From the IMG/VR virus record IMGVR_UViG_2513237361_000010: DNA of 8,276 nucleotides. One strand, given 5' to 3'. How positions within the stretch are numbered: position 1 is the stretch's first letter; each line of letters begins with the position of its first letter. Both the position numbers and the translations under genes were made by a program. Below, piece by piece: positions 1 to 8,276 of the stretch. The stretch comes from a virus (taxonomy: Duplodnaviria > Heunggongvirae > Uroviricota > Caudoviricetes). Under the pieces are notes generated by a model. The model was not told where the DNA came from and ran no database searches. It saw only the letters and a program-made list of their open reading frames with translations.

Positions 1-435
1 ATGTCCGGTAATATCTATACGCTGTACAAATCCCACTGTGAAAATGTTGGAAAGTATCGGGGCATTGAAATCAGTGGGGTAGTGTCATCAGTCGAAATAA
101 GCAAAGTTGAATCAAGGGCAACATTACTTACTCTTTTGGACCTTGTCTTACATGAGCACCGGAAGAAATTCGGCACTCCCTATAATCAGTTGAATGGGAA
201 AAAGGCTCTGGTTCACCTTATTCTGATGAAGCATCACTGGATGCCAAAACAGATTAATGAGATGAAATTTGATGAACTTCTTCTTTCAATTCAGGATGAA
301 CTCACACTTGATAAAATAAGCGTAACCGCCCAGAAATTTTTAGATTATCGAGACTGGAGATCACAAATTCATCACTTTGATGATTTTGACGAAAATGAAT
401 GGGAGCCTAATTTGTCTGCACAATATCTAAAGTAA
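1..435 (+). CDS. hypothetical protein, low-GC orphan (moron-like) gene
   Basis: 144-codon ORF beginning at the window edge ATG, so the true start and promoter are unverified. Markedly AT-rich compared with the rest of the window. No motif I recognise; acidic stretch DDFDENEWE near the C-terminus. Opposite in orientation to the adjacent leftward PL-like promoter. Confidence 0.5.
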   Translation: MSGNIYTLYKSHCENVGKYRGIEISGVVSSVEISKVESRATLLTLLDLVLHEHRKKFGTPYNQLNGKKALVHLILMKHHWMPKQINEMKFDELLLSIQDELTLDKISVTAQKFLDYRDWRSQIHHFDDFDENEWEPNLSAQYLK

Positions 436-613
436 CATCCTGTGATAAAACCGTGATTTCCTGATCCAGTTTTTTTAAGGAGTCTATTGTTTCCTGTCGA
501 TAAGACAGCACTTCACGAAGCTGGTTTATAGCTGCCAGCTTCTTTGTCATCCACTCATAAATTTCCTCATCTGTGTAGCCAGGCGCGACGATTTTGGGTT
601 CTGTTTTGTGCAT
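407..613 (-). CDS. hypothetical small protein (68 aa), possible first gene of the leftward early operon
   Basis: ATG at 611-613 (minus strand) preceded by GAGGAG at about 6 nt spacing. The track ORF 407..628 uses an upstream TTG. Its 3' end overlaps the 3' end of ORF 1..435 by 29 nt, convergently. No recognisable domain. A plus-strand hairpin (517-542) lies inside it, which lowers confidence. Confidence 0.35.
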   Translation of the reverse strand: MHKTEPKIVAPGYTDEEIYEWMTKKLAAINQLREVLSYRQETIDSLKKLDQEITVLSQDVTLDIVQTN

Positions 614-671
614 TTCACATCTCCTCAAGTTATCAGTTACTTGTTGATGGGGACCAGATTGTTAAAGAGCG

Positions 672-696
672 AAGCGTCCGGTAGGGCGCTTTTTTG
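672..696 (+). terminator. putative intrinsic terminator (GC-rich hairpin plus T6)
   Basis: aagcgtcc (672-679), loop ggta, gggcgctt (684-691): 8-bp stem with one G-U wobble on the plus-strand RNA, followed by a run of six T (690-695). The minus-strand RNA would carry a C-A mismatch and no U tract, so this is plus-strand specific. Confidence 0.5.
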
Positions 697-773
697 TTGC
701 TAACGAATCATCCTGGACTTCATATGCCCCAGGCGGCTACTTCGTGGGCGTCCTGCCTGTTCGTTGTTTCGCT

Positions 774-808
774 TGGGTACATTATGTATCTCATAGGTAC
801 ATTGTCAA
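774..808 (-). promoter_or_regulatory. PL-like leftward sigma70 promoter with overlapping operator half-sites
   Basis: On the minus strand: TTGACA (plus coords 803-808), 16-nt spacer, CATAAT (781-786). Two direct copies of GGTACATT (776-783 and 796-803) overlap the -10 and -35, and match the GGTACA half-sites in the operator region at 1538-1609. Confidence 0.45.
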
Positions 809-812
809 GTAT

Positions 813-835
813 AAAAAAACCTGCCGAAGCAGGTT
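813..835 (-). terminator. intrinsic terminator of the repressor gene
   Basis: Perfect 7-bp inverted repeat aacctgc (818-824) / gcaggtt (829-835) with loop cgaa. On the minus strand it is followed by a 7-nt U tract (plus-strand A run 813-819). Sits 13 nt downstream of the repressor stop codon at 848-850. Confidence 0.65.
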
Positions 836-847
836 CATAAACATTGA

Positions 848-1522
848 TTAGGCTTTGATTTTGTATCTTCTTGGTTTTCCTGAGAAAATCACTGTACCAA
901 TTATAGAGCAATTACCGTTGATCTTAATGTAAGGCTCAGGCCAGTTTGGGTTTAACGCTTTGAGATAACGCTGTGTCCCATCTTCTATCAACCTTTTGAA
1001 GGTGGTTTCACCTGTATCGTGCATCAATGCAATAACGTCGTCACCGTGGCAGGCAGGTACTTCAGGATCGACAAAAATCATGTCTCCCGGGCGGTACTCA
1101 TCAATCATTGAATCACCTATCACCCGCAAGATATAAGTCATTTCCCCGCAGGGTACAGGGCAGGGATATGTTTCTGCTGTGCTCAAATCAACCTCAGAAT
1201 ATCCAACTTCTTTCCATGCTCCGGCCTGTACCCATGATATGACAGGGACTAATGTGATTTGTTTATTAGTGATTGAAACATCAGGTTGTTTTGTGATGTT
1301 CGTTGTCTGGTGTTCTTGATCGAGCCATCCGACAGGCAGGTCGAAACATTTTTCGATGTGTCGTGCCATGCTGTCACCGATATTTTTAGTAGCACCATCT
1401 CCCATAAACCTGCTGGTCTGGGTTGGCTCGCGATCAATCATAGTGGCAAAGGAAGAATTCCCGCCAACACCATCTCTCAGTTTTCTGGCGTTAGACCGCC
1501 GGATGTCATGGATTGTTTTCAT
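848..1522 (-). CDS. CI-like phage repressor, HTH domain plus S24 (LexA/CI-type) autopeptidase domain
   Basis: 224 aa. C-terminal domain carries the S24 signature: Ala-Gly cleavage site (VQAGAW), catalytic Ser in VIGDSM, GDMIFVDP, and catalytic Lys in FKRL. The N-terminal part has HTH-like character. Divergent from the Cro-like gene, with its own terminator. Confidence 0.85.
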   Translation of the reverse strand: MKTIHDIRRSNARKLRDGVGGNSSFATMIDREPTQTSRFMGDGATKNIGDSMARHIEKCFDLPVGWLDQEHQTTNITKQPDVSITNKQITLVPVISWVQAGAWKEVGYSEVDLSTAETYPCPVPCGEMTYILRVIGDSMIDEYRPGDMIFVDPEVPACHGDDVIALMHDTGETTFKRLIEDGTQRYLKALNPNWPEPYIKINGNCSIIGTVIFSGKPRRYKIKA

Positions 1523-1612
1523 AACGAAATTAAAACCCTTGTACCGTTAAGGTACAAGTATCTTGAAGGTTCATTTCAATCATGTAATATGTACACCGGA
1601 GGTACATATTGT
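1523..1612. promoter_or_regulatory. divergent operator/promoter region (PRM-like and PR-like) between repressor and cro-like gene
   Basis: Perfect dyad cttgtacc-N5-ggtacaag (1538-1558) and dyad atatgtac-N7-gtacatat (1587-1609). Candidate rightward promoter: -35 TTGAAG (1563-1568), -10 TAATAT (1585-1590). Candidate leftward promoter: -10 TTTAAT (complement of 1529-1534) only 6 nt from the repressor ATG, implying a leaderless or near-leaderless repressor mRNA as with lambda cI. Confidence 0.55.
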
Positions 1613-1813
1613 ATGAAAGCGTATTGGGACTCTTTAACCAAAGAACAGCAGGGCGAGTTGGCCGGAAAAGTTGGCTCAACACCTGGCTACTTACGGCTGG
1701 TTTTCAATGGTTATAAAAAAGCCAGTTTTGTGCTGGCTAAAAAACTTGAGCAATGCACGTCAGGTGCAATTACGAAATCTGACTTAAGACCGGATATCTA
1801 TCCGAAAGATTAG
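1613..1813 (+). CDS. Cro-like small HTH regulator (Cro/YdaS family)
   Basis: 66 aa. ATG at 1613 preceded by GGAGG (1597-1601). Divergent from the repressor and sharing its operator region. Sequence pattern (ELAGKVGSTPGYL...GAITKSDLRP) resembles small Cro-type prophage regulators. The upstream part of track ORF 1286..1813 is antisense to the repressor and is ignored. Confidence 0.7.
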   Translation: MKAYWDSLTKEQQGELAGKVGSTPGYLRLVFNGYKKASFVLAKKLEQCTSGAITKSDLRPDIYPKD

Positions 1814-1844
1814 CAGAACACTTTCAATTTTTAACCACAGAACG

Positions 1845-2408
1845 ATGAGGCTAATCGTGGGTAAGCATCACTGGAAAATAGAAAAACAGCCTGAGTGGTA
1901 CGTGAAAGCTGTCAGAAAAACTATCGCGGCGTTGCCGGGTGGTTACGCTGAAGCGGCTGACTGGCTCGATGTAACAGAAAACGCTTTATTCAACCGCCTT
2001 CGTGCAGATGGCGATCAGATTTTCCCGCTGGGATGGGCAATGGTTTTACAGCGTGCTGGTGGCACTCACTTCATTGCTGATGCTGTGGCGCAGTCTGCAA
2101 ATGGCGTCTTTGTGTCTCTTCCTGACATCGAGGATGTGGACAACGCCGATATCAACCAACGCCTGCTGGAGGTCATTGAACAGATCGGCAGTTATTCAAA
2201 ACAGATTCGTTCAGCAATTGAAGACGGTGTAGTGGAACCGCATGAGAAGACAGCAATTAATGACGAGCTGTACCTCTCAATTTCGAAGCTGCAGGAGCAT
2301 GCAGCACTGGTCTACAAAATTTTTTGCATTTCAGAAAGTAATGACGCCCGCGAGTGTGCAGCTCCGGGCGCCGTGGCGTGTCGTGACTGTGGAGAAACTA
2401 ACGCATGA
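1845..2408 (+). CDS. YdaT/CII-like early regulatory protein (positional assignment)
   Basis: 187-aa ORF directly after the cro-like gene, the position occupied by cII or ydaT-type genes in lambdoid and rac-like prophages. Its stop overlaps the next start (ATGA at 2405-2408). Family assignment is by synteny and general resemblance only. The start could instead be GTG 1857, which has a GAGG 6 nt upstream. Confidence 0.5.
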
Positions 2409-2743
2409 ACAGTTTAACAACACACTACCGTCGCTCGCAACTGATTGCACTTCCTGTACCGGGTGGAAAAGCGAAGGTGGAGTATTGCTATGCAGTAAAT
2501 GTACCAGGTGACAGGGAAATTGTAACCCACAGCTTTGCAGAGTGGGCTGTGGGTGATTTCAACCGGCAGAAGGAGACAGTCCTTTGCGACAAGTTAACCG
2601 CTGGTTCAAAGATCACTACGGAGTGCCCGTCAGAGTCATTCGTTGGGAGCCGGAAACACAACGTGTTATCTACCTCCGCGAAGGCTATGAGCATGAATGC
2701 TTCAGTCCGCTCGAACAGTTTCGTCGTAAATTCAGGGAAATAG
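2405..2743 (+). CDS. hypothetical protein; C-terminal half doubtful (frame conflict)
   Basis: ATG at 2405 overlaps the stop of the previous gene. The first ~58 residues look protein-like. After ~2580 this frame becomes Ser-rich and low-complexity, while the overlapping frame looks like a real protein. Confidence 0.4.
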
Positions 2744-2763
2744 AGGTCGGTCATGAGCACTAA
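2584..2763 (+). CDS. unannotated small ORF (59 aa, TTG start), or the frameshifted C-terminal part of the preceding gene
   Basis: Not in the ORF track (below its length cutoff). AAGGAG at 2570-2575, then an 8-nt spacer, then TTG 2584-2586. Translation [59 protein letters not shown] is rich in W/F/Y and charged residues. Stop at 2761-2763 overlaps the start of the initiator gene. Confidence 0.35.
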
Positions 2764-3694
2764 ATTAACCGGCTATGTATGGGATGGTTGCGCTGCGTCA
2801 GGCATGAAATTATCCAGCGTGGCAATTATGGCCCGCCTGGCTGATTTCAGTAATGACGAAGGTGTGTGCTGGCCATCAATTGAAACCATTGCCCGCCAGA
2901 TTGGTGCGGGGATGAGTACCGTCAGAACGGCTATCGCACGGCTGGAAGCAGAAGGCTGGTTAACGCGTAAGGCGCGTCGCCAGGGTAACCGCAATGCGTC
3001 GAATGTTTATCAGCTTAACGTTGCGAAGCTTCAGGCTGCGGCTTTTTCTCAACTGTCAGATTCTGACCCGTCAAAATCTGACGCATCAAAATCTGACCCG
3101 TCAAAATTTGATGCGTCGAAATCTGGCAAAAAAGCGGGTTTTCACCCGTCAGAATCTGGCGGGGATCCGTCAGTAAAATCAAAACATGATCCGTCAGATA
3201 AAAAAACTTCTCGTCCGGACGCTTCGCAACCGGACACGCAGACGGCTGAACAGGAGTTTTTAACTCGCCATCCTGATGCGGTTGTATTCAGCCCTAAAAA
3301 GCGCCAGTGGGGAACGCAGGATGATTTGACCTGCGCACAGTGGCTCTGGAAGAAAATAATCGCCCTGTACGAGCAGGCTGCCGAATGTGACGGCGAGGTG
3401 GTTCGTCCCAAAGAACCGAACTGGACAGCCTGGGCAAACGAAATTCGCCTGATGTGTGTACAGGATGGGCGTACTCACAAACAAATCTGCGAGATGTACA
3501 GCCGTGTCAGCCGCGATCCGTTCTGGTGCCGTAACGTGCTCAGCCCGTCGAAGCTGCGGGAAAAATGGGATGAGCTTTCCCTGCGCTTATCGCCGTCCGT
3601 CAGCACGTACACCGAAAAACGCGAGGACCCGTACTTCAAAGCCAGTTACGACAACGTGGACTACAGCCAGATCCCGGTAGGATTCAGAGGGTGA
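2753..3694 (+). CDS. replication initiator, lambda O-like architecture (N-terminal HTH DNA-binding domain, iteron-encoded linker, C-terminal domain)
   Basis: 313 aa. ATG at 2753 with GAGG 6 nt upstream. N-terminal region resembles HTH replication-initiator domains. The central low-complexity linker (SDSDPSKSDASKSDPSKFDASKSGKK...) is encoded by DNA iterons, as in lambda O. Stop overlaps the next gene. Confidence 0.7.
   Translation: MSTKLTGYVWDGCAASGMKLSSVAIMARLADFSNDEGVCWPSIETIARQIGAGMSTVRTAIARLEAEGWLTRKARRQGNRNASNVYQLNVAKLQAAAFSQLSDSDPSKSDASKSDPSKFDASKSGKKAGFHPSESGGDPSVKSKHDPSDKKTSRPDASQPDTQTAEQEFLTRHPDAVVFSPKKRQWGTQDDLTCAQWLWKKIIALYEQAAECDGEVVRPKEPNWTAWANEIRLMCVQDGRTHKQICEMYSRVSRDPFWCRNVLSPSKLREKWDELSLRLSPSVSTYTEKREDPYFKASYDNVDYSQIPVGFRG
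3055..3200. repeat. iteron array, putative origin of replication inside the initiator gene
   Basis: 15-bp periodic direct repeats ttctgacccgtcaaa / atctgacgcatcaaa / atctgacccgtcaaa / atttgatgcgtcgaa (3061-3120), with further CCGTCAG copies at 3146, 3167 and 3191. The unit contains the dyad gtcaga / tctgac. The array is followed by an A-rich stretch (3198-3207). Confidence 0.7.
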
Positions 3695-3696
3695 TC

Positions 3697-4185
3697 ATGA
3701 GTCTGTTAAATGACGTTCAGAAATTCATTGAAGCCCATCCGGGGTGTACTTCCGGAGACATTGCGGATGCTTTTGCAGGTTACTCACGGCAGCGCGTTCT
3801 GCAGTCTGCAAGCAAGTTACGTCAGAGTGGGCGTGTGGCTCACCGTTGTGAAGGGGATACACGCAGACATTTCCCGCGCCTGACTGAGAGAGCGCAGGAG
3901 CCGGAACCACAACCAGTTCGTGAAACCAGACCTGTGCGCAATTTCTATGTCGGCACTAACGATCCCCGGGTGATTTTGTGCCTGACCCGCCAGGCTGAAG
4001 AACTGGAGTCAAGGGGCTTATACCGTCGTGCTGCAACCGTGTGGATGGCGGCATTCCGTGAAAGCCACTCCCAGCCAGAACGAAACAATTTTCTGGCGCG
4101 TCGTGAGCGGTGCTTACGGAAAAGCAGCAAGCGCGCTGCATCGGGTGAAGAGTGGTATCTGTCAGGGAATTACGTGGGGGCGTAA
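3697..4185 (+). CDS. PerC-family-like transcriptional regulator with N-terminal winged-helix-like extension
   Basis: C-terminal region AEELESRGLYRRAATVWMAAF...ERNNFLARRERCLRKS matches the PerC/Pch signature (LE..GLWRRAA..W ... RR..C). The track ORF starts at GTG 3691; ATG 3697 is preferred. Stop TAA 4183-4185 overlaps the next ATG (TAATG). Confidence 0.65.
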   Translation: MSLLNDVQKFIEAHPGCTSGDIADAFAGYSRQRVLQSASKLRQSGRVAHRCEGDTRRHFPRLTERAQEPEPQPVRETRPVRNFYVGTNDPRVILCLTRQAEELESRGLYRRAATVWMAAFRESHSQPERNNFLARRERCLRKSSKRAASGEEWYLSGNYVGA

Positions 4186-4511
4186 TGACGACGTTAACTC
4201 AATGCCAGCAGCAGGTGCTGGATATGCTGATTTCTTATCAGAAAGAGCGTGGCTTTCCGCCAACCAATCAGGAGGTGGCAACCATGCTGGGATACCGTTC
4301 GGTGAATGCAGCGGTGGAGCATCTTCGCGCACTGGAGAAAAAAGGTGTCATCACGATAAAGCGTGGCGTGGCCCGGGGTATCACTCTTCATACCGCGGTG
4401 GAGGACGACGACAGCGAGGCGGTCGGGATTATCCGCGCACTGCTTGCCGGTGAGGCAAACGCCAGGCTGCGTGCAGCCCACTGGTTACATGAGAGGGGCC
4501 TGAAAGTATGA
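4185..4511 (+). CDS. LexA-like protein: LexA N-terminal DNA-binding domain and hinge only, no S24 peptidase domain
   Basis: 108 aa. MTTLTQCQQQVLDMLISYQKERGFPPTNQEVATMLGYRSVNAAVEHLRALEKKGVITIKRGVARGITL aligns by eye with E. coli LexA residues 1-70, including recognition helix NAAxEHL. It is followed by an acidic hinge (VEDDDSE) and a VG..AGE remnant of the cleavage region, and ends about 25 residues later. GGGGG sits upstream of ATG 4185; the stop overlaps the rusA start (ATGA). Confidence 0.8.
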   Translation: MTTLTQCQQQVLDMLISYQKERGFPPTNQEVATMLGYRSVNAAVEHLRALEKKGVITIKRGVARGITLHTAVEDDDSEAVGIIRALLAGEANARLRAAHWLHERGLKV

Positions 4512-4897
4512 AGCTAATACTGCCTTTTCCGCCCAGCGTGAACACGTACTGGCGACACCCCAACAAAGGGGCGTTTGCAGGTAAGAGCCTGATAAGCGCG
4601 GCGGGGCGCAAATTCCAGAGCGCGGCGTGTGCAGCAATAGTTGAGCAGTTACGTCGTCTGCCAAAACCAACGTCGGCACCTGCTTCAGTGGAGATCGTGT
4701 TGTTTCCTCCGGATAACCGGATCCGCGATCTGGACAACTATAACAAGGCGCTGTTTGACGCCCTGACCCACGCGGGTGTGTGGGAAGACGACAGTCAGGT
4801 GAAAAGAATGCTGGTGGAGTGGGGACCGGTTATCCCGGAAGGGAAGGTCGAGATCACTATCAGTAAGTACGAGAAAACGGCGGGTGCAGCCGCCTGA
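4508..4897 (+). CDS. rusA: RusA Holliday junction resolvase
   Basis: 129 aa. Motifs LPFPPSVNTYWR and DLDNYNKALFDALTHAGVWEDDSQV match the RusA family, including the acidic catalytic region. A typical lambdoid NinR-region gene. Confidence 0.9.
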   Translation: MKLILPFPPSVNTYWRHPNKGAFAGKSLISAAGRKFQSAACAAIVEQLRRLPKPTSAPASVEIVLFPPDNRIRDLDNYNKALFDALTHAGVWEDDSQVKRMLVEWGPVIPEGKVEITISKYEKTAGAAA

Positions 4898-4916
4898 TCA
4901 AGAGGAGAAACGAAGT

Positions 4917-5159
4917 ATGAATAATCTGATGGTCATTGATGGTATTGAAGTTCGTCGTGATGCTTATGGGCGTTACAGCCTGAACGATCTGCATCGCGCA
5001 GCAGTAGCATCTGGTGCAAATGCCAGAACCAAGGAGCCAGGAAAGTTTCTTTCCAGCCAACAAACTGTTGAACTTGTTCATGAATTGACCAACACCCAGA
5101 ATTTGGGTGTTGACCCGGTGAGTGTGATTCATGGGGGAAATGAACGGGGAACGCCGTAA
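4917..5159 (+). CDS. KilA-N domain protein, apparently truncated
   Basis: ATG at 4917 with GAGGAG 9 nt upstream (the track ORF starts at GTG 4884). The pattern IDGIEVRRDAYGRYSLNDLHRAA...PGKFL...GGNERGT resembles the N-terminal half of KilA-N / antirepressor N-domains. The ORF stops right after the GG..GT motif and no frame continues the domain. Confidence 0.55.
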   Translation: MNNLMVIDGIEVRRDAYGRYSLNDLHRAAVASGANARTKEPGKFLSSQQTVELVHELTNTQNLGVDPVSVIHGGNERGTP

Positions 5160-5472
5160 ATTCAGTATCCTTGTGCGTATCCTCGCTGACGGGCGCACCA
5201 CAGACATCCCGCTGGGGCGTTTTCTGCGGGAATTTACCTGTGACCGTCCTGACCTGTTTAAACGCAGCCCCGTAAACCGGCATGCGGTACTGAAAGAAAT
5301 GGCCGGAGACCCGGAATTACAGAAATGGCGGGAGAAATATCTGGATATTTACCCGCAGGACCCTGTTCCGGTCAGCCGGGCGGCACCGGTGGCGCGGGAA
5401 TGGCGGGAAATTCCCCGCACGGAGCCTGACCCGGAAATCACCCCGGATAACAGTTACCGCAATTATCTGTAA
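5131..5472 (+). CDS. hypothetical protein
   Basis: 113-aa ORF overlapping the 3' end of the KilA-N ORF by 29 nt in another frame. Alternative ATG at 5140. Higher GC than upstream genes. No recognisable motif. Confidence 0.45.
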   Translation: MGEMNGERRKFSILVRILADGRTTDIPLGRFLREFTCDRPDLFKRSPVNRHAVLKEMAGDPELQKWREKYLDIYPQDPVPVSRAAPVAREWREIPRTEPDPEITPDNSYRNYL

Positions 5473-5500
5473 TTAAAAAACGACACCCGAAAAATTAAAT

Positions 5501-5526
5501 GTGCGTATTCGCGCAGGGATACGCAC
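5501..5526. promoter_or_regulatory. perfect 8-bp inverted repeat (gtgcgtat-N10-atacgcac), candidate operator or RNA stem-loop
   Basis: Lies in the only sizeable intergenic gap of the rightward operon (5473-5607). No U tract follows, so it is unlikely to be an intrinsic terminator. Confidence 0.4.
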
Positions 5527-5545
5527 GTCTTCAGGAGACGCAGAT

Positions 5546-5611
5546 ATGCCTTATCAGTTAATGCAACCGGCACGGAATGCAGTCATCTGTCACAGGGAGG
5601 AAAGCAAATGA
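5546..5611 (+). CDS. possible 21-codon upstream ORF / leader peptide ([21 protein letters not shown])
   Basis: AGGAG (5533-5537) 8 nt upstream of ATG 5546. Its stop TGA 5609-5611 overlaps the ATG of the next gene (ATGA). Could be a chance ORF. Confidence 0.25.
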
Positions 5612-5928
5612 AAACCCCCTTACCGCCCGTCTTACGCGCAGCCCTTTACCGTCGCGCTGTCGCCTGTGCCTGGCTGACCGTGTGCGAACGTCAGCACCGC
5701 TACCCGCATCTCACCCTTGAATCACTGGAGGCGGCCATCGCCGCTGAGCTGGAAGGCTTTTATCTGCGCCAGCACGGTGAGGAAAAAGGGCGTCAGATAG
5801 CCTGTGCCCTGCTGGAAGATTTAATGGAATCCGGCCCCCTGAAGGCCGCGCCGTCGCTGTCCTTTCTCGGGCTGGTTGTGATGGATGAACTCTGTGCCCG
5901 TCACATAAAAGCGCCGGTACTGCACTGA
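5608..5928 (+). CDS. hypothetical protein immediately upstream of the primase
   Basis: 106 aa. GGGAGG 7 nt upstream of ATG 5608. Stop TGA 5926-5928 overlaps the primase RBS (AGGAGA). No recognisable motif. Confidence 0.6.
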
Positions 5929-5942
5929 AGGAGAACAACACC

Positions 5943-8276
5943 ATGAAAATGAACGTAACCGCCACCGTCAGCCATGCACTCGGCCACTGGCCGCGTATTC
6001 TCCCGGCGCTGGGGATTCAGGTGCTGAAAAACCGTCATCAGCCCTGTCCGGTCTGTGGCGGGAGTGACCGCTTCCGTTTTGATGACAGGGAGGGGCGCGG
6101 CACCTGGTACTGCAATCAGTGTGGTGCCGGTGACGGCCTGAAACTGGTTGAAAAGGTGTTTGGTGTTTCCCCGTCCGACGCGGCCACAAAGGTGGCTGCC
6201 GTGACCGGCAGTCTGCCCCCGGCTGACCCGGCAGTGACGGCCGCCGCCGTTGCTGAAACAGAAGCCGCCCGGAAGAACGCCGCCGCACTGGCACAAACCC
6301 TGATGGCGAAAACCCGTCCCGGAACCGGTAACGCCTACCTGACCCGCAAGGGCTTTCCCGGCCGGGAATGCCGGATGCTGACCGGCACACACAGAGCCGG
6401 TGGCGTGAGCTGGCGCGCCGGTGACCTTGTGGTGCCACTGTATGACGACAGCGGCGAACTGGTTAACCTTCAGTTAATCAGTGCTGACGGCCGTAAGCGC
6501 ACCCTGAAAGGCGGACAGGTCAGGGGCACCTGTCACATCCTTGAAGGACAGAATCAGGCCGGAAAACGTCTGTGGATAGCGGAGGGATACGCGACCGCAC
6601 TTACCGTACATCACCTGACCGGTGAAACGGTGATGGTGGCGCTTTCTTCCGTGAACCTCCTTTCTCTGGCCAGCCTTGCCCGGCAGAAGCATCCGGCCTG
6701 TCAGATTGTCCTTGCCGCAGACCGTGACCTCAGCGGTGACGGCCAGAAAAAAGCCGCCGCAGCCGCAGATGCGTGTGAAGGTGTTGTTGCCCTGCCGCCG
6801 GTCTTCGGTGACTGGAATGATGCCTTCACGCAGTACGGCGGGGAAGCCACCCGTAAGGCCATTTATGATGCCATCCGGCCACCGGCTGAAAGCCCGTTCG
6901 ACACCATGAGCGAAGCGGAGTTTTCCGCCATGAGTACCAGCGAAAAGGCCATGCGTATCTATGAGCATTACGGCGAGGCGCTCGCGGTCGATGCCAACGG
7001 CCAGCTTCTGTCCCGCTATGAAAATGGTGTCTGGAAGGTGCTGCCGCCACAGGACTTTGCCCGGGATGTGGCCGGGCTGTTTCAGCGGCTGCGCGCGCCG
7101 TTCTCCTCCGGGAAGGTGGCCTCCGTGGTGGACACCCTGAAGCTGATTATTCCGCAGCAGGAAGCCCCCTCCCGCTGCCTGATTGGCTTTCGTAACGGCG
7201 TGCTCGACACGCAGAACGGCACGTTCCACCCGCACAGTCCGTCACACTGGATGCGTACCCTGTGCGATGTGGATTTCACCCCGCCGGTGGAAGGGGAAAC
7301 GCTGGAAACCCACGCCCCCGCGTTCTGGCGCTGGCTTGACCGTGCCGCCGGTGGCCGTGCGGAAAAACGCGACGTGATTCTGGCCGCACTGTTTATGGTG
7401 CTGGCAAACCGCTATGACTGGCAGCTCTTTCTGGAGGTGACCGGTCCCGGCGGCAGCGGCAAAAGTATCATGGCCGAAATAGCCACCCTGCTGGCCGGGG
7501 AGGATAACGCCACGTCGGCCACCATCGAGACGCTGGAATCCCCGCGTGAACGTGCCGCGTTAACTGGCTTCTCACTGATACGCCTGCCGGACCAGGAAAA
7601 ATGGAGCGGCGACGGAGCCGGACTCAAGGCCATCACCGGCGGCGATGCGGTGTCCGTTGACCCGAAATACCGGGATGCGTACTCCACGCACATCCCGGCG
7701 GTGATTCTGGCCGTGAACAATAACCCGATGCGCTTCACCGACCGCAGCGGCGGCGTGTCACGCCGGCGGGTGATTATTCACTTCCCGGAACAGATAGCCC
7801 CGCAGGAGCGCGACCCGCAGCTTAAGGACAAAATCACCCGCGAGCTGGCGGTCATCGTGCGTCACCTGATGCAGAAGTTCAGCGACCCGATGCTCGCCCG
7901 GTCACTGCTTCAGTCCCAGCAGAACTCAGACGAGGCGCTGAACATCAAACGGGATGCCGACCCGACGTTTGATTTTATCGGCTATCTGGAAACCCTGCCG
8001 CAGACCAGCGGCATGTATATGGGGAACGCCAGTATCATCCCGCGTAATTACCGTAAATACCTCTATCACGCCTATCTGGCCTACATGGAGGCAAACGGCT
8101 ACCGGAATGTACTCAGTCTGAAAATGTTCGGGCTGGGGCTGCCGGTGATGCTGAAGGAATACGGGCTGAATTACGAGAAGCGCCATACCAAACAGGGGAT
8201 ACAGACCAACCTGACGCTGAAAGAGGAAAGCTACGGCGACTGGCTGCCAAAATGTGACGACCCTACAACAGCCTGA
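5943..8276 (+). CDS. P4 alpha-type primase-helicase (zinc-ribbon, TOPRIM primase domain, P-loop NTPase/helicase domain)
   Basis: 777 aa. N-terminal zinc ribbon CPVCGG...YCNQCG. TOPRIM-like region with the acidic motifs LWIAEGYATAL and VLAADRDLSGDGQ. Walker A GPGGSGKS, with a downstream VILAVNNNP motif typical of SF3-type helicase domains. Strong RBS AGGAGA 9 nt upstream. Ends exactly at the window end. Confidence 0.9.
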   Translation: MKMNVTATVSHALGHWPRILPALGIQVLKNRHQPCPVCGGSDRFRFDDREGRGTWYCNQCGAGDGLKLVEKVFGVSPSDAATKVAAVTGSLPPADPAVTAAAVAETEAARKNAAALAQTLMAKTRPGTGNAYLTRKGFPGRECRMLTGTHRAGGVSWRAGDLVVPLYDDSGELVNLQLISADGRKRTLKGGQVRGTCHILEGQNQAGKRLWIAEGYATALTVHHLTGETVMVALSSVNLLSLASLARQKHPACQIVLAADRDLSGDGQKKAAAAADACEGVVALPPVFGDWNDAFTQYGGEATRKAIYDAIRPPAESPFDTMSEAEFSAMSTSEKAMRIYEHYGEALAVDANGQLLSRYENGVWKVLPPQDFARDVAGLFQRLRAPFSSGKVASVVDTLKLIIPQQEAPSRCLIGFRNGVLDTQNGTFHPHSPSHWMRTLCDVDFTPPVEGETLETHAPAFWRWLDRAAGGRAEKRDVILAALFMVLANRYDWQLFLEVTGPGGSGKSIMAEIATLLAGEDNATSATIETLESPRERAALTGFSLIRLPDQEKWSGDGAGLKAITGGDAVSVDPKYRDAYSTHIPAVILAVNNNPMRFTDRSGGVSRRRVIIHFPEQIAPQERDPQLKDKITRELAVIVRHLMQKFSDPMLARSLLQSQQNSDEALNIKRDADPTFDFIGYLETLPQTSGMYMGNASIIPRNYRKYLYHAYLAYMEANGYRNVLSLKMFGLGLPVMLKEYGLNYEKRHTKQGIQTNLTLKEESYGDWLPKCDDPTTA

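Follow-up and report, generated by a model that had tools for sequence, protein, structure and literature searches.

Fusion of a lambdoid prophage kilA-N gene to the orf151 gene of a P4-type satellite: a probable scar of illegitimate recombination in Escherichia sp. TW09308

Defective prophage remnants produced by internal deletion are the closest kind of locus described so far to the one analysed here. They likewise carry truncated genes at non-homologous deletion end-points, and the defective remnants of Escherichia have lost late genes while keeping immunity and early genes. In strain K-12, such defective remnants include e14, Rac, CP4-57 and CP4-6. The module junctions of lambdoid mosaics also combine an abrupt switch of ancestry with a local change in GC content; the classical lambdoid joints lie at gene or domain borders and are found in viable phages. 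Two intact gene arrangements allow a direct comparison: the rusA-kilA-N-DUF968-Q order of mEp460 and SfV, and the alpha operon of the satellite P4 (epsilon-orf151-orf106/cnr-alpha-crr, NC_001609). A P4 replicon requires ori, with its type 1 and type 2 repeats, together with crr and alpha. Lambdoid phages are, to our knowledge, not the helper type of P4-type satellites. P4-like elements are reported to share almost no sequence with phages, and their core set comprises int, psu, delta, sid, alpA, epsilon and alpha, of which types A to C lack at most two (PMC8628076).

The window, a stretch of 8,276 nucleotides from a virus record (IMGVR_UViG_2513237361_000010), joins DNA of these two families, and nucleotide homology of 98–100% identifies every part of it. 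On the plus strand, a lambdoid early region of the mEp460/SfV type (1..5153, recognized by BLAST identity and Pfam) is followed by a P4-type satellite segment (5154..8276, recognized by identity to P4 and to the ZH177 element) that carries a 5'-truncated orf151, cnr (orf106) and alpha. The join is very probably the scar of an illegitimate recombination that fused the kilA-N gene of a lambdoid prophage to the orf151 gene of a P4-type satellite. Compared with mEp460 and SfV, the left arm keeps 98–100% identity across rusA and for 237 nt into kilA-N, but nothing remains from kilA-N codon 80 on, with loss of the DUF968/HNH, Q, lysis and morphogenesis genes. The right arm is collinear with the P4 alpha operon at 98.6% identity; unlike P4, it starts at orf151 codon 46, with int, cos, psu, delta, sid, ori, orf88, cI and epsilon gone, and the 4 nt behind crr are characteristic of P4-like elements of the ssrA type, not of P4. 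Late genes are thus lost and immunity and early genes kept, as in the defective Escherichia remnants, but here the scar joins two unrelated element families, and the arms are still 99–100% identical to circulating elements, from which we conclude that the event was very recent. Unlike a classical lambdoid mosaic joint, the present one cuts into a gene on either side, and its partner DNA is of a non-lambdoid family. The locus is unusual only in that it pairs a lambdoid phage with a P4-type satellite and in being rare and young.

In a three-way alignment of the window with mEp460 and P4, the sequence passes from the former to the latter at ...GAACGGGGAACG|CCGTAAATTCAG.... Lambdoid identity extends to position 5153 as its last and P4 identity begins at position 5152, placing the breakpoint on a 2-nt 'CG' common to both parents (5152..5153, plus strand), inside the KilA-N domain on one side and inside orf151 on the other. 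BLAST end-points for the query 4700–5950 are the same (1–454 for the lambdoid match, 453–1251 for P4). To the left of the break, 8 of 13 nt are alike in the two parents (binomial P = 0.006), a patchy microhomology of the pattern that would be expected of illegitimate recombination, and a local repeat search found only short, chance-like repeats near the junction. An att junction of a P4-like element would fall at the att core, beside int or behind crr, in a tRNA or tmRNA gene; the join lies instead within orf151, with some 3.5 kb between it and attP of P4, and is no such junction. An Rfam search found no RNA family in the window. The original prediction, made from the letters of the DNA, had spoken of an illegitimate or modular recombination: the homology end-points and the 2-nt overlap argue for the illegitimate alternative, whereas the modular one falls because both genes are cut internally. 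It had also proposed that alignment to relatives with a full-length kilA-N gene would locate the breakpoint, as it did.

The same query was compared by megablast with 50,697 phage records and 5,426 complete E. coli genomes. Phages mEp460, cdtI, SfII, Ayreon and other lambdoid phages match up to 5153 at 97.6–99.3% (99.3% for the mEp460-type match over 4700–5153), while phage P4 (98.7%) and E. coli P4-like elements (up to 100%, the value of the ETEC1730 element) match over 5152–5950. A match spanning the junction occurs in none of these phage records or E. coli genomes. Exact searches with a junction 54-mer and a 23-mer in genome_contigs (one genome per species for 185,579 bacterial and archaeal species), with the 54-mer in IMG/VR and with a 36-mer in the JGI metagenomes were negative as well. 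The event is rare, and it is recent, since over 5.29 kb the lambdoid arm shows zero differences from a prophage that is intact in E. coli.

On the lambdoid side, the junction leaves a truncated kilA-N pseudogene of 80 aa (4917..5159, plus strand; recognized by Pfam, phrog_129 and identity to mEp460). Its ATG at 4917 is preceded by an AGGAG 8 nt upstream, and its TAA stands at 5157–5159. The product matches the Pfam KilA-N family (PF04383; E 1.1e-07, 32.1 bits for a cut-off of 23.8) over profile positions 5–75 of 107, short of a complete domain, and phrog_129 ('transcriptional regulator') over positions 2–79 of 273. All of its first 79 residues (79/79) are identical to the N-terminus of a 269-aa mEp460 protein, after which the reading frame gives a proline and a stop directly behind ...GGNERGT. 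Codons 1–79 are lambdoid, codon 80 (CCG, Pro) straddles the breakpoint, and the stop falls 4 nt inside P4 DNA, with 79 of about 269 codons kept. With the full-length protein as query, tblastn found no continuation of kilA-N in any frame of the 20-kb source locus; the claim that the ORF ends right after its GG..GT motif and that no frame continues the domain was therefore correct. Intact kilA-N genes encode 269 aa in mEp460 and 265–269 aa in eleven further relatives, where they are followed by DUF968/HNH and then Q. That a gene was destroyed thus stands, cut after codon 79, but not its designation as antirepressor-type: the relatives are annotated only as KilA-N domain proteins or transcriptional regulators, and the C-terminal 160 aa have no Pfam family.

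The N-terminal part of kilA-N shows some variation of its own. Match end-points within the gene vary by lambdoid phage: the 100% identity of SfII stops at 4993, and several Stx2c phages match no further than 5110. The low-GC N-terminal stretch (4917–5110) is thus a hot spot of mosaicism in lambdoid phages. A 68-aa family, PHROG 18199 (phrog_18199), covers KilA-N residues 1–62 only.

On the satellite side, a chimeric ORF of 113 aa (5131..5472, plus strand; recognized by identity to P4 ORF151 and by phrog_10748) overlaps the kilA-N ORF out of frame, as the ORF list had suggested from the start. It consists of 7 out-of-frame codons of kilA-N DNA followed by the last 106 of the 151 codons of P4 orf151, and 104 of these 106 residues are identical to ORF151 residues 46–151. 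Its match to phrog_10748 runs over positions 43–151 of 151, the first 45 family codons being missing, and it has no Pfam family. The ORF had been described as a different, GC-richer one; its GC content (56.7%) bears this out, but it is itself a 5'-truncated P4 orf151 with a lambdoid-derived start. In P4, ETEC1730 and ZH177, orf151 encodes 151 aa, and epsilon lies upstream in intact relatives; the missing half is absent from the 20-kb source locus (tblastn). The ATG in kilA-N DNA is an accidental acquisition. Partial profile coverage of the 80-aa and 113-aa products marks both ORFs as fragments of longer genes, and we infer that they are pseudogene fragments with no selected function.

Between the orf151 fragment and cnr, RNA folding finds a hairpin with a 12-bp stem (5499..5527, plus strand; arms GUGCGUAUUCGC...GGGAUACGCAC). 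It is native P4 sequence and not made by the junction, the P4 record X02534 annotating a 'region of dyad symmetry' there, and the 141-nt intergenic stretch that contains it has a fold z-score of only -1.9.

Base composition had served as a cue to the junction, with a rise in GC estimated by eye from about 46% to 55–60%. Locally, such a rise exists: the kilA-N fragment has 47.3% GC (GC3 0.39), the orf151 fragment (5154–5472) 56.7% (GC3 0.61), cnr 60.1% and alpha 61.0%. However, the lambdoid genes upstream already lie at 52.8% (rep), 55.2% (PerC), 56.6% (LexA-DBD) and 56.4% (RusA), so that the apparent break is the far edge of a 240-nt dip of low GC, not a step from a GC-poor phage into a GC-rich module. 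In a sliding-window calculation with half-windows of 300 nt, the shift at 5153 is +0.10 and among the top 1.7% of positions, but with 200 nt it is an unremarkable +0.03, and shifts of equal size occur within each arm, at 478, 1886, 4829–4905 and 5614. A likelihood change-point search on GC did not pick 5153. The junction is located by homology, not by composition.

The lambdoid arm contains a 144-aa ORF, an S24 repressor of the YmfK type (848-1522, minus strand, Pfam), Cro/YdaS, a cII-like gene, a replication gene with iterons, PerC, a protein with a LexA-type DNA-binding domain, RusA and the 5' part of kilA-N. The rusA gene (4508..4897, plus strand; Pfam RusA, E 6e-15) is the last intact lambdoid gene before the junction, and the rusA/kilA-N region is 99.3% identical to mEp460. 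As a single piece, 1–5153 matches E. coli prophages at 98.5% (BLAST), and over 5292 nt the arm has 100.000% identity with L016, a prophage that lies intact at proA-thrW in an E. coli assembly (GCA_023275955.1). Measured against a complete lambdoid prophage, the immunity and replication functions are there (S24 repressor, Cro/YdaS, the cII-like gene and an HTH_36 gene with 15-nt iterons). Missing are the integrase, the Q antiterminator and the lysis and virion genes, which the relatives possess; no integrase, Q, lysis, virion or cos genes were found within 10 kb on either side in the contig.

Within the 313-aa HTH_36 replication gene, 3062–3125 holds 4.3 tandem copies of the 15-nt unit TCTGACCCGTCAAAA, which encode DPSKSD-type peptide repeats; by analogy with lambda, they look like an iteron-type origin inside an O-like gene. 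At about 770–1830, the immunity cassette consists of a 224-aa YmfK-type S24 repressor and a 66-aa YdaS-type Cro, where most near-identical relatives have an HTH_3-S24 repressor of 215–230 aa, mostly with an 86-aa HTH_3 Cro, a classical immunity-module swap. Between PerC and LexA-DBD, at 4185, most relatives carry a 654-nt Dam methyltransferase gene that is missing from the window, L016 and L006.

In the satellite arm, orf106 (5608..5928, plus strand; Pfam DUF5375, E 3e-63) is intact and identical to P4 ORF106 at 106 of 106 residues; we take it to be cnr, the copy-number regulator. The alpha primase-helicase (5943..8276, plus strand) is likewise intact, with 777 aa of which 769 are identical to P4 alpha and the Pfam domains Zn_Ribbon_Prim, Toprim_3, D5_N, DUF5906 and Pox_D5. 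Over about 3470 nt, the arm is 98.6% identical to P4, collinear with P4 7760–4291 (NC_001609), and 99.1% identical to the P4-like element at ssrA of E. coli ZH177. In the source contig, the P4 segment runs on through crr, 345–349 nt past the end of the window (L003, the source contig, to 13491). The P4 ori region (L002:952–1675), which lies 4.5 kb from crr, has no match in the 20-kb locus, so the cassette cannot act as a P4 replicon. Nor is the block a P4-like satellite, since alpha is the only one of the seven core components present: int, psu, delta, sid, alpA and epsilon were found neither in the window nor within 10 kb on either side in the contig. The view that a lambdoid early region had been joined to a GC-rich replication module was right as to the foreign module, which comes from the alpha operon of a satellite of the P4 type rather than from another lambdoid phage. 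Both cnr and alpha appear to be separated from their own P4 promoters. A prediction scan of the interval from rusA to alpha gave no plus-strand terminator-like site and no sigma-70-like promoter, which makes read-through from the lambdoid operon possible; cnr and alpha could be expressed, as we predict, only by such read-through from the repressor-controlled early operon.

The exact 80-aa and 113-aa proteins occur in two contigs only of a 153-billion-gene index. One is the source, AEME01000001.1 (GCA_000208565.2, 4.81 Mb), which belongs to Escherichia sp. TW09308, a member of cryptic clade V, now E. marmotae, isolated from fresh water in Michigan (PMC3850674, PMC3466228, PMC6650469). The other is a Logan contig of 1244 nt from the run SRR29904084, which was assembled independently and spans the junction. 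It differs from the window at two positions, 4839 and 4899, about 250–315 nt upstream of the junction; both alleles occur in other lambdoid prophages, and they prove a second read set but not a second strain. Identity to E. coli is only about 92% in the chromosomal flanks of TW09308, while the prophage arm matches a prophage of E. coli at 100%, from which it follows that the phage DNA arrived recently and that the deletion came later still.

How the fusion arose can be approached from the gene order of the parents. P4-like elements run from the attachment site (ssrA in some) through int, psu-delta-sid, alpA, epsilon, orf151, cnr and alpha to crr, so that transcription of their alpha operon leads away from the tRNA or tmRNA gene. 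In lambdoid relatives, thrW is followed by int and the early-right operon, and the direction of this operon relative to the tRNA gene is the same. With both operons pointing away from the attachment site, one deletion yields a co-oriented fusion. The simplest origin would then be a tandem array of tRNA gene, lambdoid prophage and P4-like satellite, within which a single deletion from kilA-N to orf151 would have removed the lambdoid Q, lysis and virion genes as well as P4 int, cos, psu-delta-sid, ori, cI and epsilon, leaving a non-transmissible remnant. We hold this route only tentatively, as possible but somewhat short of probable. P4-like elements beside large prophages, and decaying tandem arrays, have been reported (PMC8628076). 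An unsystematic look for the undeleted tandem ancestor found none, and against the route stands the position of the fused block, which is not at a tRNA gene in the deposited contig.

Other readings of the junction have to be weighed against an illegitimate-recombination scar. A viable hybrid element, be it a lambdoid phage or a new satellite, might have recruited the P4 cnr-alpha-crr cassette into its early operon as a functional module, so that the junction would be a selected mosaic boundary. The intactness of alpha (777 aa) and cnr with crr next to them, the co-orientation of the operons with no predicted terminator between them and the intactness of every lambdoid early gene would suit such a capture. 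Yet the join cuts both flanking genes in mid-domain instead of falling at gene borders, and the cassette came without the P4 ori into an arm that has its own replication gene with iterons. Genes for Q, lysis, virion, cos and integrase functions are missing for 10 kb on both sides, and the junction recurs in none of the E. coli genomes, phage records, IMG/VR, JGI metagenomes or genome_contigs. We consider this capture quite unlikely. More doubtful still is a domesticated phage-satellite hybrid whose cnr-alpha-crr would be an SOS-inducible primase-helicase module used by the host or the remnant. If true, SOS control would result from the lost P4 promoters and immunity and from the place downstream of a lambdoid PR-type operon, and the module might serve to interfere with P4-like satellites or P2-type helpers that enter the cell, or to over-replicate DNA locally.

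Errors of assembly or sequencing deserve even less credit. In the record, a single 4.81-Mb 'contig' of a whole-genome shotgun project, the outer borders of the block resemble contig ends in repeat-rich sequence, and unrelated contigs of this 2011 draft genome might have been misjoined at 5152/5153. The SRR29904084 contig nevertheless carries the identical junction. With no more than 2 nt common to both parents at this point, a 31-mer graph needs reads that contain the join in order to cross it, and a chimera of assembly is therefore rejected for the kilA-N/orf151 join, its probability being very slight. A frameshift in a homopolymer could in principle have split one longer gene, since a run of Gs lies near the out-of-frame overlap of the two ORFs. 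The original prediction had pointed to this run, and it is present (GGGGG, 5133–5137), at least 16 nt upstream of the breakpoint; but the intact mEp460 gene, with its frame open across this point, has the same run and the same next 16 nt, as does the Logan contig, so there is no homopolymer error. Moreover, the sequence past 5153 is P4 DNA and not kilA-N in any frame, and the frameshift is practically negligible. The same holds for a genuine short gene encoding KilA-N only, followed by a separate intact small gene. Since phrog_18199 exists, short N-terminal ORFs are annotated in some phages, but here KilA-N is cut at profile position 75 of 107, and 45 codons at the start of its family are missing from the downstream ORF. 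The two short proteins are not conserved as separate genes, being found in exact form in those two contigs only, against 265–269 and 151 aa in the relatives. An illegitimate-recombination scar remains by far the preferred reading.

For biology at large, this locus carries little weight: it is one more scar of prophage decay and brings no new kind of gene or system. It does provide an example, resolved to the nucleotide, of satellite DNA fused to phage DNA. An arm 100% identical to an E. coli prophage in a backbone of about 92% identity documents very recent phage traffic between E. coli and clade V (E. marmotae). A methodological caution can also be drawn, as the GC cue pointed to the right place while composition alone was insufficient and the homopolymer was a red herring.

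In the source contig, the fused block extends over 8.76 kb (L003:4731–13495) and comprises the window with 140 nt on its left and 345–349 nt on its right. The window runs exactly from the ATG of the 144-aa ORF to the alpha stop and was thus cut on gene borders. On the left (L003:4731), the block abuts the middle of the giant adhesin gene siiEA; on the right (L003:13491–13495), it abuts a REP element 19 nt past the stop of pbpG. The right border lies within 4 nt of the point where P4 and ssrA-type P4-like elements diverge, after the A8T7 run that ends crr. In E. coli, siiEA stands between copA and cueR, presumably at about 0.5 Mb on the K-12 map, and pbpG adjoins dld at about 2.2 Mb. The two loci are about 1.7 Mb apart in E. 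coli, and they are in opposite map orientation at the TW09308 block. Neither outer join was found by BLAST in the 5,426 E. coli genomes, and a scan of the JGI metagenomes did not return the right one. A query of the concatenated flanks gave no 'empty site' in the E. coli genomes, because these flanks lie 1.7 Mb apart there.

The neighbouring ends of the block lie in repeats (Big_13 repeats, the A8T7 run with crr repeats, and the REP element). The outer joins may be genuine and reflect a large inversion, or a complex rearrangement, across the terminus of TW09308; alternatively, contigs were butt-joined into a pseudo-chromosome in the 4.81-Mb record, in favour of which all three neighbouring ends lie in repeats. 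This question leaves the verdict on the kilA-N/orf151 junction unaffected. TW09308 lacks yohF, a gene that E. coli carries between yohD and mdtQ (L003:15940–15967 versus L021:5088–5849). In the 3' remainder of siiEA, gene calling gives two overlapping genes of 1570+ aa and 924 aa (L003:1939–1942), which indicates a frameshift or a sequencing error in the adhesin gene.
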